DNA from: a virus
Lineage: Duplodnaviria > Heunggongvirae > Uroviricota > Caudoviricetes
IMG/VR virus record: IMGVR_UViG_2734482565_000012
DNA: 40,525 bases
Direction: 5' to 3' (one strand)
In this document: positions 30,062 to 33,855 of the stretch, piece after piece
Position numbering within the stretch: position 1 is the stretch's first letter
How the letters are laid out: every line of letters starts with the position of its first letter
Made by a program: the position numbers and the translations under genes
The notes under the pieces: model-generated
The model's database searches: none
Told to the model about the DNA's origin: nothing
What the model saw: only the letters and a program-made list of their open reading frames with translations

Positions 30062-30730
30062 TTAAAATTCACCCATCGCCNNNNNNNNNNNNNNNNNNNN
30101 NNNNNNNNNNNNNNNNNNNNNNNNNNNNNNNNNNNNNNNNNNNNNNNNNNNNNNNNNNNNNNNNNNNNNNNNNNNNNNNNNNNNNNNNNNNNNNNNNNNN
30201 NNNNNNNNNNNNNNNNNNNNNNNNNNNNNNNNNNNNNNNNNNNNNNNNNNNNNNNNNNNNNNNNNNNNNNNNNNNNNNNNNNNNNNNNNNNNNNNNNNNN
30301 NNNNNNNNNNNNNNNNNNNNNNNNNNNNNNNNNNNNNNNNNNNNNNNNNNNNNNNNNNNNNNNNNNNGATAGCTGCCGCTAAGTGGTTCTTCCCGGTACC
30401 AGGTTTTCCGCTGAACGCAAAATTTGTACACCCGGTCATCAGTTCATCAGCGATGGATTTCGCCTGACTCAACGCGTATCGCTGCGCTTCGTTCTGCACC
30501 TGGTAATTCGAAAACGAGCATTTGCGGTGCAATGGCTGGATGCCAGAGCGATTCAGAATTTTTTCCACCCGCAACTGACGATTCTGACGGTTGATCTCCT
30601 CACAACGTTTCTGGCCTTCGGAAAGTTGCCACTCGCGCCACTCCGCTACCGTCTTGAATGGCGCGGTTACATGTGACGGGGCCAGTCTGCGGATACGTTC
30701 AAGAACGTCGCCTGTCGCAATATTTTTCAT
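30062..30730 (-). CDS. ydaV: DnaC/IstB-like replication ATPase, interrupted by assembly gap
   Basis: Walker [15 protein letters not shown]; matches Rac YdaV as recalled; C-terminal part replaced by N-run. Confidence 0.8.
30081..30367. other. assembly gap (run of N)
   Basis: 287 consecutive N within the ydaV-like gene. Confidence 0.99.
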
Positions 30731-30736
30731 GGTCAG

Positions 30737-31594
30737 TTACCCCCTGAAGCCTGGCGGGATCGCACTATCCGGTAACGAGACGGTGTTAACCTGTCGGAGT
30801 AACGTCTCAGGTCGAACACCTTTCGGCGCGAACAAGCCCTGGTATTCATTGGCGATGCTGTGTCGAATCACCTGCTCAGGTGAAAAACCCTGCTGGCGGA
30901 ATTTTTCCAGCTCCCGTATCGCCCCGTTAGCGCCCTGCTCCGTTCGAATCGGTTTTCGCAATGCCTGGCGAAATTCAACCCACTCACGCCAAAGCGAGAC
31001 AGAAATCCAGTTCGGCAAAGCAATATCCAGAGGGTCAAACTTTTTGACACCTCGATTCCCCCGGGGGGGATTTAGGGGGGGATCTGTTTTTAGATCTTTA
31101 TCTGTATCTTTATTAGTTGCCTTTGTGTTGACATCATGTTCAAACACCACTTCAACATCTGTTTGAACACCTGTTAAATTTCTCTCTTGTTTTGTTTGAA
31201 CATCTGCTTCCTTTCTGCTTCTTCTGGCCTGAACAGATGCTTTTCCTGCGGCTGATTTTTTGGTTAATTTTTCCCTGACTGATGCCAGATCTTCCTCAAT
31301 CCGAAGATGCACCCATTCCTCGCCGTTATCGCAAAAAAACTCCTGCAAGGATGGTTCAACATCAGCCCATCGCTCGTTAGTCAGACGGGCAATTTTTGCC
31401 AGCCTGTTTTTAGGTATTGGCTTTCCTGTTTGCCAGTAATTGAACATCAGCAACAAATACGCACCATGCTCCTCTGCTGACAAATGCATGGTGTCAGCCA
31501 GGTAATCAGCTATGTACAGTTGCATGTATGGTAATGCGGCCATAATTGCCCCGTATGATGCTGCCCGGTGGCTTAGAATAAGCACAAACAGCAT
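30737..31594 (-). CDS. ydaU: replication initiation-associated protein YdaU (DUF1376)
   Basis: 285 aa; ..MAALPYMQLYIADYLADTMHLSAEEHGAYLLLMFNYWQTGKPIP.. ; sits between ydaT and the dnaC-like gene. True start may be the internal Met at codon 18. Confidence 0.75.
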   Translation of the reverse strand: MLFVLILSHRAASYGAIMAALPYMQLYIADYLADTMHLSAEEHGAYLLLMFNYWQTGKPIPKNRLAKIARLTNERWADVEPSLQEFFCDNGEEWVHLRIEEDLASVREKLTKKSAAGKASVQARRSRKEADVQTKQERNLTGVQTDVEVVFEHDVNTKATNKDTDKDLKTDPPLNPPRGNRGVKKFDPLDIALPNWISVSLWREWVEFRQALRKPIRTEQGANGAIRELEKFRQQGFSPEQVIRHSIANEYQGLFAPKGVRPETLLRQVNTVSLPDSAIPPGFRG

Positions 31595-31606
31595 GGAAAC
31601 TTTTGC

Positions 31607-32029
31607 TTAATGAACAATGACAGAATCGTCGGAAGACCCGCCGCCGCTGAAATGCGCTTTCCGGTAAACGGCTTGGACTGCATCATCATGCGCATCAATT
31701 GCCGTACTTAACGCTTCCTGCGCCGCCAGTAATGCACGGCGTTCCAGGGTATCGAAGATGCAGAGTCGGTGACGCAGCTCGCGCGGAAGGATTGCCAGAA
31801 TTGCTGGGATCAGCTTCTGAATTTTTTCTCTTTGCGTTTTCGTTTCACCTTTCAACCAACGGTGATAGATATTCTGCTGATTATTCCAGTCCTTGCCTGG
31901 TACCAGGGGCAATTCGCCGCCCCCCTGGCGCAGATATTCTTCAGTAATGGCATTGGCTACCCATGCCTGCCCTTTTTCGGCTGCCAGGGCTAACAACACT
32001 GACTCGATGTGCTCATGCTTGATTTTCAT
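31607..32029 (-). CDS. ydaT: YdaT (CII-position regulator of Rac-type switch)
   Basis: 140 aa, immediately downstream of ydaS with overlapping stop/start; matches Rac YdaT length. Confidence 0.8.
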   Translation of the reverse strand: MKIKHEHIESVLLALAAEKGQAWVANAITEEYLRQGGGELPLVPGKDWNNQQNIYHRWLKGETKTQREKIQKLIPAILAILPRELRHRLCIFDTLERRALLAAQEALSTAIDAHDDAVQAVYRKAHFSGGGSSDDSVIVH

Positions 32030-32280
32030 GAATCAACTCCCATCAGCTTTTTCGTAGTAGTTTTATTTCTGCCAATAGTTAAAATTACATCAGCAGAAAA
32101 TAATCCGTTTGATGCATGAGCGATTTTTTCAGCGTAATTTGTTTCGCCGGTATATTCTGTGCGAGGCAATTTTCCGTTATCCATCCATTTGTAGATTGCT
32201 CTTTGGCTGACACCACAAACGTCGGCCACAACAGAAACGCGAACAGTTTTGATTACATCTTCAAGTGTTTTCTGGTTCAT
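32026..32280 (-). CDS. ydaS: Cro-like HTH regulator YdaS
   Basis: Start placed at MNQKTLEDVIKTVRVSVVADVCGVSQRAIYKWMDNGKLP (HTH); divergent from racR (ORF track extends to 32352). Confidence 0.8.
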   Translation of the reverse strand: MNQKTLEDVIKTVRVSVVADVCGVSQRAIYKWMDNGKLPRTEYTGETNYAEKIAHASNGLFSADVILTIGRNKTTTKKLMGVDS

Positions 32281-32341
32281 ATCACCCTCACAATGTGAAC
32301 TTTGAGTACATGCTATAACAGAACTGACAGTACATTCAAGA
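32281..32341. promoter_or_regulatory. divergent racR / ydaS control region with repeated AGTACAT motifs and tcaca-a-tgtga palindrome
   Basis: Two direct AGTACAT heptamers about 24 nt apart plus a short palindrome in the 61-bp spacer between the divergent repressor and cro-like genes. Confidence 0.45.
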
Positions 32342-32779
32342 GTGAATATCATTGAACTTATGGTTCATGAAGATAAAGCGCGTAAAGAGTTCGCCAGTAG
32401 GCTTGCGCTAGCCTGTGAAAACGCTGGTTATGAACAACATGGAAGGCAGGCAGAAATTGCCCGTCGAATGAAATTAACACCAAAAGCGGTTAGCAAATGG
32501 TTTAATGGCGAAACAATTCCTCGCCGAGAGAAATTAAGGGAATTAGCAACACTCATTGGAACAACACCAACCTATCTTTTGGGAGAGGATACAGAAGAAA
32601 GTGGACAGGTACGTTTCTATCAGGAGTTAAATCCAAGACAAAAAATCATCATTGACCTTCTGGACGAGCTCCCTGACAGTGAGACAGATGAACTTTTAAA
32701 AACTCTTGAGGAGAAAAAACAGAAGTACAATGCAATTTACGAAGAGCTAGCACGAAAGAAAAAACAAAAAGCCTCTTAA
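32342..32779 (+). CDS. racR: prophage repressor RacR (XRE-family HTH)
   Basis: ..MVHEDKARKEFASRLALACENAGYEQHGRQAEIARRMKLTPKAVSKWFNGETIP.. ; divergent from ydaS. Start ambiguous (GTG 32342 or ATG 32360). Confidence 0.85.
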   Translation: MNIIELMVHEDKARKEFASRLALACENAGYEQHGRQAEIARRMKLTPKAVSKWFNGETIPRREKLRELATLIGTTPTYLLGEDTEESGQVRFYQELNPRQKIIIDLLDELPDSETDELLKTLEEKKQKYNAIYEELARKKKQKAS

Positions 32780-32849
32780 ACCAGCATAAATCCGGTAGCG
32801 TCCCCCTCCGGGTTTGTGCTTCACTTTATCCCATCTCATTTTTTTACAC

Positions 32850-32900
32850 ACAAAATGTACTTATAGTACTTTACATCAATGAACACAAAGTACATTATAT
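32850..32900. promoter_or_regulatory. candidate early-left promoter/operator region with AGTACAT-type repeats
   Basis: ATGTACT-TAT-AGTACT palindrome followed by AAGTACATTAT; same heptamer as in the racR-ydaS spacer; TTTACA...CATTAT promoter-like hexamers. Confidence 0.35.
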
Positions 32901-33069
32901 ACCTACCAACCCACCCCGCCCCACAGAACGCAGGGCAATACTTCGAGTTACCAGGCAGTGGTCAGGGGTTAAGTAGCCAGCCCGAGGCGTATGAACATGA
33001 CGGCAGGGTTCAGATTTTGCAGTGCAGCAGGTTTCAGTTCCGCCACCCGGCGTTAAGGGGAGAGATAAG

Positions 33070-33204
33070 ATGGTGCATTACGAAGTAGTTCAGTATTTGA
33101 TGGATTGTTGCGGTATCACTTACAACCAGGCTGTGCAGGCTTTACGCAGCAACGACTGGGATCTCTGGCAGGCAGAAGTCGCTATACACAGCAACAAGAT
33201 GTGA
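33070..33204 (+). CDS. ydaG: small protein YdaG-like (44 aa)
   Basis: MVHYEVVQYLMDCCGITYNQAVQALRSNDWDLWQAEVAIHSNKM within ORF 33022..33204; GGGGAG SD-like sequence upstream. Confidence 0.55.
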   Translation: MVHYEVVQYLMDCCGITYNQAVQALRSNDWDLWQAEVAIHSNKM

Positions 33205-33214
33205 GATTCGCAAA

Positions 33215-33370
33215 ATGCAAAAAATCGACCTCGGCAACAACGAATCCCTGGTGTGCGGCGTGTTCCCCAACCAGGATGGAACGTTCACTGCCATGACGTA
33301 TACCAAAAGCAAAACATTTAAAACCGAAACTGGTGCGCGCCGATGGTTGGAGAAGCACACAGTAAGCTAA
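33215..33370 (+). CDS. ydaF: small protein YdaF-like (51 aa)
   Basis: MQKIDLGNNESLVCGVFPNQDGTFTAMTYTKSKTFKTETGARRWLEKHTVS*; below ORF-track cutoff; convergent with sieB. Confidence 0.55.
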   Translation: MQKIDLGNNESLVCGVFPNQDGTFTAMTYTKSKTFKTETGARRWLEKHTVS

Positions 33371-33855
33371 CGATTAAAACGTCTACTCCTGCTGTTCCAG
33401 AATAACTTCATAAAATGGGAGTATTTTTCGGTGACGAGATAATAAGAACAGTTTGCGCTATCACTCTGATGTTGAATGATGCCCTTCCGTTCTAATTTTT
33501 TCATAACCGGGTTACGGCAAGGAGAAGTGATAATAAGATTTCCTGTTTTAAGGAAATCTTTAAATACAGCGATTTCTTTCTCAGATAAACGAAGCAATAC
33601 TCGTTGCTCTGGTAGTAATGAATAATGCTTTTGAATATGTGCTCGCAATCTTGAGAAGGAAATGGCGACCACGAAAGAAAAGGCAAAAACGATAATCTGA
33701 AAGAGCCAAGGTATTTCAGTATAAGCATTGAATGCGACAGTAAACTCTTTCGGTATCAGCCAGAGAGTGAGACCAAAAATGATAATCGTATACATAAGTA
33801 TTTCGAGTGGCTCGTTAGCAAAAAGTTTCAACAATGGAGTAAATACATCCAACAT
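33367..33855 (-). CDS. sieB: superinfection exclusion protein SieB
   Basis: 162 aa from MLDVFTPLLKLFANEPLEILMYTIIIFGLTLWLIPKEF..; two TM segments; matches Rac SieB as recalled. Confidence 0.8.
   Translation of the reverse strand: MLDVFTPLLKLFANEPLEILMYTIIIFGLTLWLIPKEFTVAFNAYTEIPWLFQIIVFAFSFVVAISFSRLRAHIQKHYSLLPEQRVLLRLSEKEIAVFKDFLKTGNLIITSPCRNPVMKKLERKGIIQHQSDSANCSYYLVTEKYSHFMKLFWNSRSRRFNR

Follow-up and report, generated by a model that had tools for sequence, protein, structure and literature searches.

AGTACAT repeats flanking the repressor of a Rac-like prophage as probable arms of five HK022/933W-type operators

Gene content of the immunity region

The window, the whole 40.5-kb stretch of viral DNA analysed here, contains the immunity region of a Rac-like prophage. 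Its immunity repressor gene (32360..32779, plus strand) encodes a protein of 139 aa that combines an HTH_3 N-terminal domain with a short helical, DicA-like C-terminal domain. The divergent neighbour (32026..32280, minus strand) encodes an 84-aa Cro-like regulator and occupies the position of ydaS in K-12. The repressor start at ATG 32360 is conserved, and the GTG at 32342 is GCG in 50 of 52 related haplotypes. The first-pass annotation described a 61-bp spacer between the two genes, a length that presumes the GTG start; from the conserved ATG the spacer is 79 bp. It also took the flanking genes to be racR and ydaS. The K-12 alleles are absent here, and an HK022-type cro and a DicA-like repressor gene stand in their place.

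The repressor shares 100% identity with the "CI repressor" of Escherichia phage Tritos, for which a literature search found no paper. Its N-terminal domain shares 47% identity with residues 4-102 of HK022 CI (E 6e-32) and 51% with residues 1-73 of 933W-type cI, and matches Pfam HTH_3. The recognition helix, TPKAVSKWFNGE, is almost identical to that of HK022, TPKAISKWFNGE; the domain is thus of the HK022/933W type with its recognition helix conserved. Lys42 and Lys46 of the 933W repressor are also kept. In the 933W repressor model these two residues contact the operator, and the K46A mutant lost specific binding (PMC3317979).

The remainder of the repressor resembles DicA of Qin. No match to the S24 peptidase domain (PF00717) was found in the 139-aa protein, which places it outside the LexA-like cleavable CI proteins, and the alignment stops before the S24 region of HK022 and 24B CI. 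The tail is predicted to form two helices (model pLDDT 82.6); a Foldseek search of the PDB with this model returned only generic Xre-type N-terminal domains, all at E >1e-3, and was uninformative on the tail. Residues 29-137 align to the DicA model NF007257 (E 2e-15), which shows a shared architecture, but the 56.8-bit score falls below the curated cut-off of 101 bits, so that by the NCBIfam score rule the repressor is not a member of the DicA family. Its N-terminal domain is nearer to HK022/933W CI. DicA itself has 135 aa and no RecA-cleavage site; its operators lie at two promoters, dicCp and dicBp, and an antirepressor lifts its repression (PMC10448788).

The Cro-like protein shares 62% identity with HK022 Cro (E 2e-34) and 56% with Cro of Klebsiella phage 2b. 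It has no match to PF15943 (YdaS_toxin), a model that K-12 YdaS matches at 2.6e-31.

These genes belong to a heterologous immunity cassette of 868 bp (32036..32903). When the 31500-33500 region is compared with K-12 Rac by blastn, only 31500-32035 (98.7%) and 32904-33500 (98.0%) align. The ends of the cassette lie at the YdaT-box and close to +1 of the leftward early promoter PL; between them are all five operators and the three promoters described below. The YdaT-box, TTGATT-N6-AATCAA (32019..32036), lies over the ydaT start codon and is the sole perfect match in the window; the motif has been published for YdaT of Rac and CP-933P (PMC11879457; PMC9986795). By this motif match it is the binding site of the CII-like protein, a neighbour element of the switch.

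Distribution of the heptamer

The first-pass annotation reported a recurrent AGTACAT heptamer on both sides of the repressor gene, and every motif coordinate is confirmed. Two copies on the plus strand lie between the divergent genes (32305-32311 and 32329-32335). Downstream of the repressor, the reverse complement ATGTACT (32855-32861) is followed by TAT and then by AGTACT (32865-32870), and AAGTACATTAT occupies 32888-32898. The count across the 40.5-kb window is unremarkable, with five copies of AGTACAT/ATGTACT against 3.4 expected. Their placement is not: four of the five fall within the 218 bp of non-coding DNA that flank the repressor gene, where 0.005 would be expected. Among 195 heptamers ranked by enrichment in these two non-coding regions, AGTACAT comes first (Poisson P 3.5e-11), so the clustering also stands.

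The spacer also contains a palindrome, TCACAATGTGA (tcaca-a-tgtga, 32288-32298), that had been listed beside the heptamers. It is present but is rejected here as an element and set outside the system. With 656 near-palindromes of this form (5-bp arms, 1-bp gap, at most one mismatch) in the window, its presence does not exceed chance. Haplotypes differ at two of its columns, and neither HK022 nor Klebsiella phage 2b has the palindrome. It overlaps the ribosome-binding region of the cro-like gene and the first bases of OR1.

Five putative dyad operators and three predicted promoters

The predicted recognition unit is a 15-17 bp imperfect dyad, TGWAC-N5-GTWCA, of which each AGTACAT is one arm; the repressor-site consensus reads T-G-(A/T)-A-C-T ... 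A-G-T-(A/T)-C-A. The two spacer copies, earlier described as repeats in direct orientation, are indeed both there, but as dyad arms with a flanking base and not as independent repeats. With up to one mismatch the dyad occurs nine times in 40.5 kb (3.7 expected), and five of these nine matches lie in the two non-coding regions. Every perfect match (3/3) falls within these regions flanking the repressor. The five sites have G-(A/T)-A-C at positions 2-5 of a 15-bp dyad, as in HK022/933W-type sites.

Three sites occupy the region between the divergent genes, with cores starting at 32296, 32320 and 32353 and the third over the repressor start. OR1 (GTGAACTTTGAGTACAT, 32295..32311; 15-bp core 32296-32310) has no mismatches and a position weight matrix (PWM) score of 17.0. 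It is the operator closest to the cro-like gene, covers the predicted start of the rightward promoter PR, and is homologous in position to HK022 1431 and to the annotated OR1 of 24B. OR2 (CAGAACTGACAGTACAT, 32319..32335; core 32320-32334; PWM 17.1) lies 24 bp from OR1 and overlaps the -35 of PR as well as that of the PRM-like promoter. The same +24 offset recurs in HK022, Klebsiella phage 2b, and the Salmonella phage and prophage relatives. OR3 (TTGAACTTATGGTTCAT, 32352..32368; core 32353-32367), which the first-pass annotation had missed, is the best site in the window (PWM 21.3). Its central bases include the repressor ATG at 32360, and its core recurs unchanged in HK022 OR1 and OR3. OR3 of 24B is likewise annotated over the cI ATG. 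This location suggests that OR3 serves as the autorepression site of the repressor.

The second set covers the leftward early promoter, TTTACA-17-CATTAT, with cores starting at 32856 and 32880 that are homologous to HK022 2263 and 2287. OL2 (ATGTACTTATAGTACTT, 32855..32871; core 32856-32870; PWM 18.9) abuts and overlaps the -35 of this promoter, and its haplotype differences are confined to the central spacer. OL1 (ATGAACACAAAGTACAT, 32879..32895; core 32880-32894; PWM 14.6) lies 24 bp from OL2 and overlaps the PL -10. An OL pair at +24 is also found in HK022, Salmonella phage ABTNLsp11242, the Salmonella prophages L089 and L090, and L092. One-base departures from the core pattern occur in the left arm of OR2 (AGAAC) and the right arm of OL2 (GTACT).

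The five sites are the top five operator PWM scores of the whole window (21.3, 18.9, 17.1, 17.0 and 14.6), followed by 12.5; in shuffled sequence the fifth-best score never exceeded 10.2. The PWM was built from the operators of relatives only, but those had been found with the window-derived pattern, which makes the test partly circular. The 24B annotation and the 933W biochemistry are anchors independent of that pattern. Neither a third OL site nor an HK022-like extra operator beyond cro was found, the next PWM scores being at most 12.5 and elsewhere in the window.

Three promoter-like sequences are interleaved with the operators. The PR-like promoter of the cro-like/ydaT/ydaU operon (32310..32339, minus strand) has a -35 of TTGAAT (32339-32334), an 18-bp spacer and a -10 of TAGCAT (32315-32310). 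Its placement was transferred by coordinates from the -35 and -10 of the annotated 24B pR, and is therefore inferred rather than mapped; transcription would start near 32303. A promoter-like site is found at the equivalent position in HK022. The PRM-like promoter of the repressor (32324..32352, plus strand), CTGACA-17-TATCAT, was found by a promoter scan (10/12 matches). It is homologous to CTGATA-17-TATAGT of HK022 and to 24B pRM, whose annotated start is 1 nt before the ATG. A start at 32359/32360 would produce a leaderless repressor mRNA. As OR2 lies over the -35 of this promoter, the repressor may activate its own promoter or may only repress it.

The PL-like promoter (32870..32898, plus strand), also found by promoter scan, reads into ydaG, ydaF, kilR, racC and recE. 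Its HK022 counterpart is TTTACA-17-CATCAT, with TTTACA kept in all relatives, and over the 61-bp OL/PL segment the identity to HK022 is 82%. A conserved 158-bp leader follows PL. A put- or nut-like RNA in this leader was considered and dropped: a search of Rfam to E 1 gave no match, and shuffled sequences fold no worse (z +1.28).

Conservation across relatives

The spacing of the sites (0/+24/+57 for OR, 0/+24 for OL) is the same in the window, Tritos, HK022, Klebsiella phage 2b and Salmonella phage ABTNLsp11242. It is also the same in Salmonella prophages with a 62-65% identical short repressor and in an 89% identical allele. The OR offsets are identical in seven relatives and in the annotated 24B record, which places OR1-3, pR, pRM and the leaderless start at equivalent positions. 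In the operator logo, G-W-A-C occupies positions 2-5 (1.0-1.8 bits), T or C position 6, and A or T the centre, with no constraint at position 7; biochemical measurements on the 933W repressor gave the same pattern (PMC3317979). The OR2 sites of 24B and SI8 entered the logo in their annotated register, 1 bp off, which slightly lowers the information and leaves the conclusion unaffected.

Among 52 haplotypes, common polymorphisms affect none of 45 half-site columns and 28 of 159 other non-coding columns (Fisher p 9e-4), although the haplotypes are kin by descent and Fisher tests overstate their independence. Within the operators, changes fall in the central spacer and hardly ever in the half-site bases. 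The phage records Tritos and vB_EcoS-666R9 have an identical repressor gene and the five operators alike, with only spacer bases differing. An IMG/VR search yielded 80 loci, all 99-100% identical at the protein level, a set fit for polymorphism and not for deep comparison. Conservation in relatives, on which the first-pass annotation had made its proposal depend, holds for the G-W-A-C dyad, which persists. It does not hold for the heptamer word, which changes to AGTTCAC or GGTACAT.

The repressor allele and the operator word are exchanged together. The repressor is not an orthologue of RacR, to which it aligns over only 33 residues of the helix-turn-helix (12 of 33 matching), and the system is not of the K-12 RacR/YdaS type. 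In K-12 Rac, the published operator TAGGC-N3-GCCTA lies between the divergent genes and recurs next to a promoter (TTGACA-17-TATAGT) located downstream of racR. The window's two non-coding regions contain no (T/A)TAGGC-N3-GCCTA(T/A), and the window total is 4 against a chance expectation of 11.4. The swap is reciprocal, each of the TAGGC and TGWAC motifs being absent from the regulatory regions of the other allele.

Discussion

Taken together, these comparisons favour the reading, at a probability of about 0.88, that the heptamers are arms of five operators in an HK022/933W-type lambdoid immunity switch of a Rac-like prophage. The earlier proposal of operator half-sites gains support from the enrichment, the HK022/933W homology, the spacing, the half-site conservation and the K-12 motif swap. 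Observed here are the sites, their non-random placement, the homology that links them to characterised operators, the pattern in which they are conserved, and the way they vary together with the repressor allele. From these we infer that the sites are bound, and also the order of occupancy, its cooperativity, the points where transcription starts and the route of induction.

In the proposed mechanism, dimers of the 139-aa repressor would recognise the 15-bp dyads. Repressor at OR1 and OR2, 24 bp apart, would block the rightward promoter of the cro-like/ydaT/replication operon, and repressor at OL1 and OL2, also 24 bp apart, would block the leftward promoter of ydaG-ydaF-kilR-racC-recET. At high repressor levels, occupancy of OR3 over the start of the leaderless message could lead to negative autoregulation. 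By analogy, the Cro-like protein probably uses the same five sites in the opposite order. Because a DicA-like tail replaces the LexA-type cleavage domain, derepression probably proceeds through an antirepressor and not through RecA-stimulated cleavage.

One alternative is that the heptamers are independent monomer sites in direct orientation. Both copies in the OR spacer do share an orientation, and the left arms of OR1, OR2 and OL1 are TGAAC or AGAAC instead of TGTAC, making these dyads imperfect. A partner arm nevertheless lies exactly 10 bp from every heptamer, and OR3, the best site, is a perfect TGAAC-N5-GTTCA dyad without any AGTACAT. Relatives that alter the heptamer keep the G-W-A-C dyad, and the site bound by the homologous 933W repressor is 15 bp long and rotationally symmetric (PMC3317979). 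Monomer sites are accordingly given very little credence. It is somewhat less improbable, but still unlikely, that the main user of the sites is the Cro-like protein or some other factor, with the 139-aa protein binding elsewhere. Lambdoid Cro proteins share operators with the repressor, and here the Cro-like protein is nearer to its HK022 counterpart (62%) than the repressor is (47%). Such joint use by Cro and repressor is the norm, however, and no alternative to repressor binding. The near-identity of the recognition helix to that of HK022 CI and the retained 933W base-contact lysines also argue for the repressor, the Salmonella relatives of DicA architecture retain the same sites, and YdaT has a different motif in a different place.

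The repeats might instead lack any present function, being inherited remnants in a cryptic prophage or a side effect of AT-rich promoter sequence. Rac-type elements are often defective, and the motifs overlap promoter hexamers that are themselves conserved. Against this, half-site columns are selectively kept relative to spacers and gaps that also overlap promoters, the phage records Tritos and vB_EcoS-666R9 retain the identical repressor gene with the five operators, and the motif swaps along with the repressor allele. A functionless relic is thus scarcely credible.

The closest characterised counterpart is HK022. The likeness covers the operator consensus, the identical OR3 core, the 0/+24/+57 and 0/+24 spacings, the homologous PL and PM-like promoters, the Cro-like protein (62%), the CI N-terminal domain (47%) with its near-identical recognition helix, and the OL/PL DNA (82%). 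HK022 CI binds cooperatively at adjacent operators and forms OL-OR loops (PMC8053113). Its CI differs in having an S24 (LexA-like) C-terminal domain where the repressor here has a short, helical, DicA-like tail. Here only two OL sites and no extra site downstream of cro were found, and the OR-OL distance is about 0.5 kb compared with about 0.7 kb. The neighbours are those of Rac, with ydaT for cII and ydaG/ydaF/kilR/recE for nun. With 933W and 24B, the region shares a rotationally symmetric 15-bp site (G-(A/T)-A-C at positions 2-5, T/C at position 6, A/T at the centre), three OR and two OL sites, OR3 over the cI ATG, a leaderless repressor transcript and Lys42/Lys46. Position 1 is mostly T here and C in 933W, and Ser41 of 933W is Pro. 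The 933W repressor also has an S24 domain, and is reported to be non-cooperative at adjacent sites (PMC3317979).

The layout itself recalls lambda: three operators separate the divergent repressor and cro genes, a second set lies at the leftward early promoter, and the repressor mRNA is leaderless. Adjacent lambda operators are about 24 bp apart centre to centre. Unlike in lambda, the operator sequence is of another kind, only two OL sites and no cleavable C-terminal domain are present, and the -35 of the maintenance promoter lies under OR2 instead of next to it. The first-pass comparison with lambda OR and OL, in which one repressor could shut both the cro-side and the early-left operons, is right in substance. 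The concept is not new: two-sided OR/OL control is textbook knowledge, the operator family is well studied, and control from both OR and OL has been demonstrated experimentally for PaaR2 in the Rac-like prophage CP-933P (PMC8630535). PaaR2 and YdaS of CP-933P are a repressor and a Cro-like protein that were shown to act at OR and OL/PL sets, with a leaderless repressor gene. CP-933P differs in its GTTTAGTAA-type 18-bp palindromes, its toxin-antitoxin pair downstream of the repressor and its other repressor family.

K-12 Rac holds its RacR/YdaS pair in the equivalent slot of an equivalent prophage type, again with a short non-cleavable repressor. Three dyads lie between its divergent genes, the third of them covering the ATG, and its promoter is leaderless (PMC9638921); two further dyads appear to lie over the leftward promoter downstream of the repressor. 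The proteins are not orthologous, however, and the operator word is TAGGC-N3-GCCTA instead of the TGWAC-N5-GTWCA found here. Knock-down of K-12 RacR derepresses kilR, ydaG and recET (bioRxiv 10.64898/2026.09.06.749655).

The immunity region described here is present in 1037 of 5426 complete E. coli genomes (about 19%). The operator map, with five sites, three promoters and joints at the YdaT-box and PL +1, applies to a common, uncharacterised Rac-like immunity type. Because "racR" and "ydaS" labels assigned by position can mask a different immunity specificity, what has been published on K-12 RacR and its TAGGC operators is not transferable to these strains. The chimeric repressor, with an HK022/933W-type DNA-binding domain and a DicA-type tail, illustrates how domains are shuffled in immunity modules, and prompts the question whether there is cross-immunity with HK022-type and Stx phages. 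One tentative and rather doubtful possibility is that a non-cleavable repressor could confer SOS-proof cross-immunity to HK022-type phages, and might, within one cell, bind the closely related operators of 933W-type Stx phages and alter their induction.

Identity of the repressor and its neighbor

Alignment with K-12 Rac (megablast, blastn) breaks off after 32035 (98.7% up to that point) and resumes at 32904 (98.0%), and the 868 bp between these joints are heterologous. The first-pass annotation had named the genes flanking the candidate operators racR and ydaS; the alignment break and protein comparisons show that they are not the K-12 alleles. RefSeq lists the product of the repressor gene (32360-32779, + strand) as a helix-turn-helix protein of 139 aa with ATG 32360 as its start, and the "CI repressor" of Escherichia phage Tritos has the same sequence (100% identity). 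The first ~100 residues share 47% identity with HK022 CI, and residues 1-73 share 51% with 933W-type CI; a domain search and CI alignment found no S24 peptidase domain. The protein aligns over its whole length with the DicA model NF007257 (E 2e-15, a score under the family cut-off), and its tail (residues about 85-139, LNPRQKIIIDLLDELPDSETDELLKTLEEKK...) aligns with DicA of prophage Qin. In the AlphaFold model, the N-terminal domain has five helices and is joined by a floppy linker to two C-terminal helices; the tail has no match among solved structures (Foldseek against the PDB). By these alignments, the repressor is chimeric, joining a DNA-binding domain of HK022/933W type to a tail of DicA type. 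The latter implies a non-SOS, possibly antirepressor-based, induction route. The neighboring cro-like gene (32026-32280, - strand) encodes a protein with 62% identity to HK022 Cro and without a match to PF15943, the YdaS family, which K-12 YdaS matches at 2.6e-31.

The intergenic spacer had been given as 61 bp, measured from GTG 32342-32344, the start that an ORF finder would pick. This GTG is a minor allele, the codon being GCG in 50 of 52 related haplotypes, so that the real spacer is 79 bp. Elsewhere in the window, two N runs occur at 647-952 (306 bases) and 30081-30367 (287 bases); the second interrupts a ydaV-like ORF and thereby introduces X residues into its translation.

Predicted dyad operators flank the repressor gene

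All of the motifs reported earlier were located where they had been placed: AGTACAT at 32305-32311 and 32329-32335 (+), the palindrome TCACAATGTGA at 32288-32298, ATGTACT-TAT-AGTACT at 32855-32870, and AAGTACATTAT at 32888-32898. The heptamer is not over-represented across the 40,525-bp window (5 observed, 3.4 expected). Its placement is far from random: the 218 bp of non-coding DNA flanking the repressor gene hold four of the five copies, against an expectation of 0.005. When all k-mers in these two regions were counted without bias, AGTACAT came out as the most enriched of 195 heptamers (Poisson P 3.5e-11).

A partner arm lies 10 bp from every AGTACAT, and the predicted recognition unit is therefore the imperfect dyad TGWAC-N5-GTWCA; that the heptamers are instead monomer direct repeats is unlikely. 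Allowing at most one mismatch, the window contains 9 such dyads against 3.7 expected; five fall in the two non-coding regions, and the three perfect matches are all among these five. These are OR1 (32295-32311, GTGAACTTTGAGTACAT), OR2 (32319-32335, CAGAACTGACAGTACAT), OR3 (32352-32368, TTGAACTTATGGTTCAT), OL2 (32855-32871, ATGTACTTATAGTACTT), and OL1 (32879-32895, ATGAACACAAAGTACAT). The proposal that the heptamers are operator half-sites is supported in the form of dyad arms; it had overlooked OR3, which lacks AGTACAT and carries the conserved repressor ATG at its center. A weight matrix was built solely from operators of HK022, a Klebsiella phage, and a Salmonella phage, themselves located by the pattern first seen in the window. 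With it, the five operators are the five best matches in 40.5 kb (21.3, 18.9, 17.1, 17.0, and 14.6; next best 12.5), and the fifth-best score never exceeded 10.2 in 30 shuffles. Three anchors do not depend on the window-derived pattern: the annotation of the 933W-type phage 24B, the biochemistry of the 933W repressor, and the K-12 exchange.

That the sites are a functionless relic, or are used only by another factor, is likewise unlikely. The 80 IMG/VR loci (repressor 99-100% identical) and Tritos together represent 52 distinct haplotypes for this region. Among them, 5 of 45 half-site columns vary, always as rare variants, versus 19 of 58 other columns in the operator clusters (Fisher p 0.011). 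Polymorphisms found in at least three haplotypes affect 0/45 half-site and 28/159 other non-coding columns (p 9e-4); given the shared ancestry of the haplotypes, both p-values are indicative only. Common changes inside operators lie in the central N5 spacer; in OL2, for instance, the window's TAT is AAA in Tritos. In the pooled logo, positions 2-5 are G-(A/T)-A-C, position 6 is T or C, position 7 is free, and the center is A/T, the pattern of base preference of the 933W repressor in mutational EMSA (PMC3317979). Lys42 and Lys46 of that repressor, modeled as base contacts, are conserved here; its K46A mutant loses specific binding (PMC3317979).

Directly after the repressor stop codon, a short CCGG...CCGG hairpin is followed by GTTTGTGCTT (32790-32822). 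Its stem is kept and its loop varies among haplotypes; it may be a weak terminator, and was not called by a terminator scan.

Overlap with predicted promoters and proposed regulation

The promoter scan gave a PRM-like CTGACA-17-TATCAT (32324-32352, +), from which transcription would start at 32359/32360 and leave the repressor mRNA leaderless, and a PL-like TTTACA-17-CATTAT (32870-32898, +) reading into ydaG, ydaF, kilR, racC, and recE. A PR-like TTGAAT-18-TAGCAT (32339-32310, -) was placed by coordinate transfer from the 24B annotation. OR1 covers the putative PR start, OR2 the -35 elements of PR and the maintenance promoter, OR3 the repressor start, OL1 the predicted PL -10, and OL2 the PL -35. 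The suggested resemblance to lambda OR and OL is borne out, with three OR and two OL dyads flanking the repressor gene over predicted PR and PL.

Repressor dimers at OR1/OR2 and OL1/OL2 would silence both early operons, OR3 would mediate autorepression, and the Cro-like protein would use the same sites. Given the DicA-like tail, relief of repression would probably depend on an antirepressor, the known mode of control of DicA (PMC10448788).

Recurrence of the layout in relatives

Non-conservation of the heptamers in related prophages had been named as an outcome that would count against them; the layout recurs. OR spacing of 0/+24/+57 is found in Tritos, HK022 (locus L004, 1431/1455/1488), Klebsiella phage 2b LV-2017, Salmonella phage ABTNLsp11242, two Salmonella enterica prophages (L089 and L090; short repressor 62-65% identical), and an 89%-identical allele (L092). 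The OL pair at 0/+24, flanking a conserved TTTACA, recurs in HK022 (2263/2287), ABTNLsp11242, L089, L090, and L092. HK022 has promoter-like sites at positions homologous to the predicted PRM and PL, and the GenBank record of the 933W-type phage 24B annotates OR1, OR2, OR3, pR, pRM, and a leaderless pRM start at homologous positions. Cooperative binding of HK022 CI to adjacent operators, and CI-mediated looping between OL and OR, have been reported (PMC8053113).

Two further features were observed in these relatives. A HigB-toxin/HTH antitoxin-like pair lies between the short repressor and the OL pair in L089 (3053-3720) and L090 (3088-3755), comparable in position to rexAB of lambda and paaA2-parE2 of CP-933P; despite this insertion, the OL pair still precedes the next leftward gene. 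HK022 also has an operator-like dyad, GGTACTAAAAGTACA (1164-1178), in the interval separating cro from cII, at a distance of about 267 bp from OR1. It may correspond to the additional CI site that the loopometer paper mentions downstream of OR; no counterpart is present in the window.

Exchange of the immunity cassette with K-12 Rac

The published RacR operator is (T/A)TAGGC-N3-GCCTA(T/A), and the racR-ydaS spacer holds three such dyads, the third over the racR ATG, plus a leaderless promoter (PMC9638921; PMC5700373). Here, the K-12 locus (L001) is found to carry two further RacR-type dyads downstream of racR, at 2547-2559 and 2572-2584 (TAGGCATAGCCTA, TAGGCATTACCTA). These flank a TTGACA-17-TATAGT promoter (11/12 matches) that ends at the cassette joint, the whole (2547-2588) pointing toward ydaG/ydaF/kilR and looking like an OL/PL for K-12 RacR. 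Term searches of RacR papers turned up no mention of such an OL/PL, and one of these papers describes the RacR regulon as not characterised in detail. The window's regulatory regions lack the K-12 motif, and the K-12 locus lacks TGWAC-N5-GTWCA. As each locus has its own motif on both sides, the two-sided architecture is common to both immunity types; read from the two loci, the operator word switches together with the repressor.

The exchanged cassette is bounded by the YdaT-box on one side and by about +1 of PL on the other, limits that place every specificity determinant inside and the transcribed leader wholly outside. At the left joint, and coinciding exactly with it, is a perfect YdaT-box, TTGATT-TTCATG-AATCAA (32019-32036), over the ydaT start codon. 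It is the sole perfect match in the window and corresponds to the published site of the CII-like protein YdaT of Rac and CP-933P (PMC11879457; PMC9986795). Beyond the right joint, the 158-bp leader after PL (32904-33061) is conserved at 88-98% in about 3800 E. coli genomes, beside differing immunity alleles; it has no Rfam match and folds no better than shuffled sequence.

Experiments on the Rac-like prophage CP-933P have already demonstrated two-sided control for PaaR2 and YdaS (PMC8630535), and RacR knock-down in K-12 derepresses kilR, ydaG, and recET (bioRxiv 10.64898/2026.09.06.749655; PMC11014345). The operator family is likewise already known from HK022 and 933W. The present allele occurs at ≥80% coverage in 1037 of 5426 complete E. 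coli genomes, and its public records carry only generic protein names and leave the operators unmarked. The new points are modest: an explicit predicted operator map for this common allele, and its chimeric repressor.
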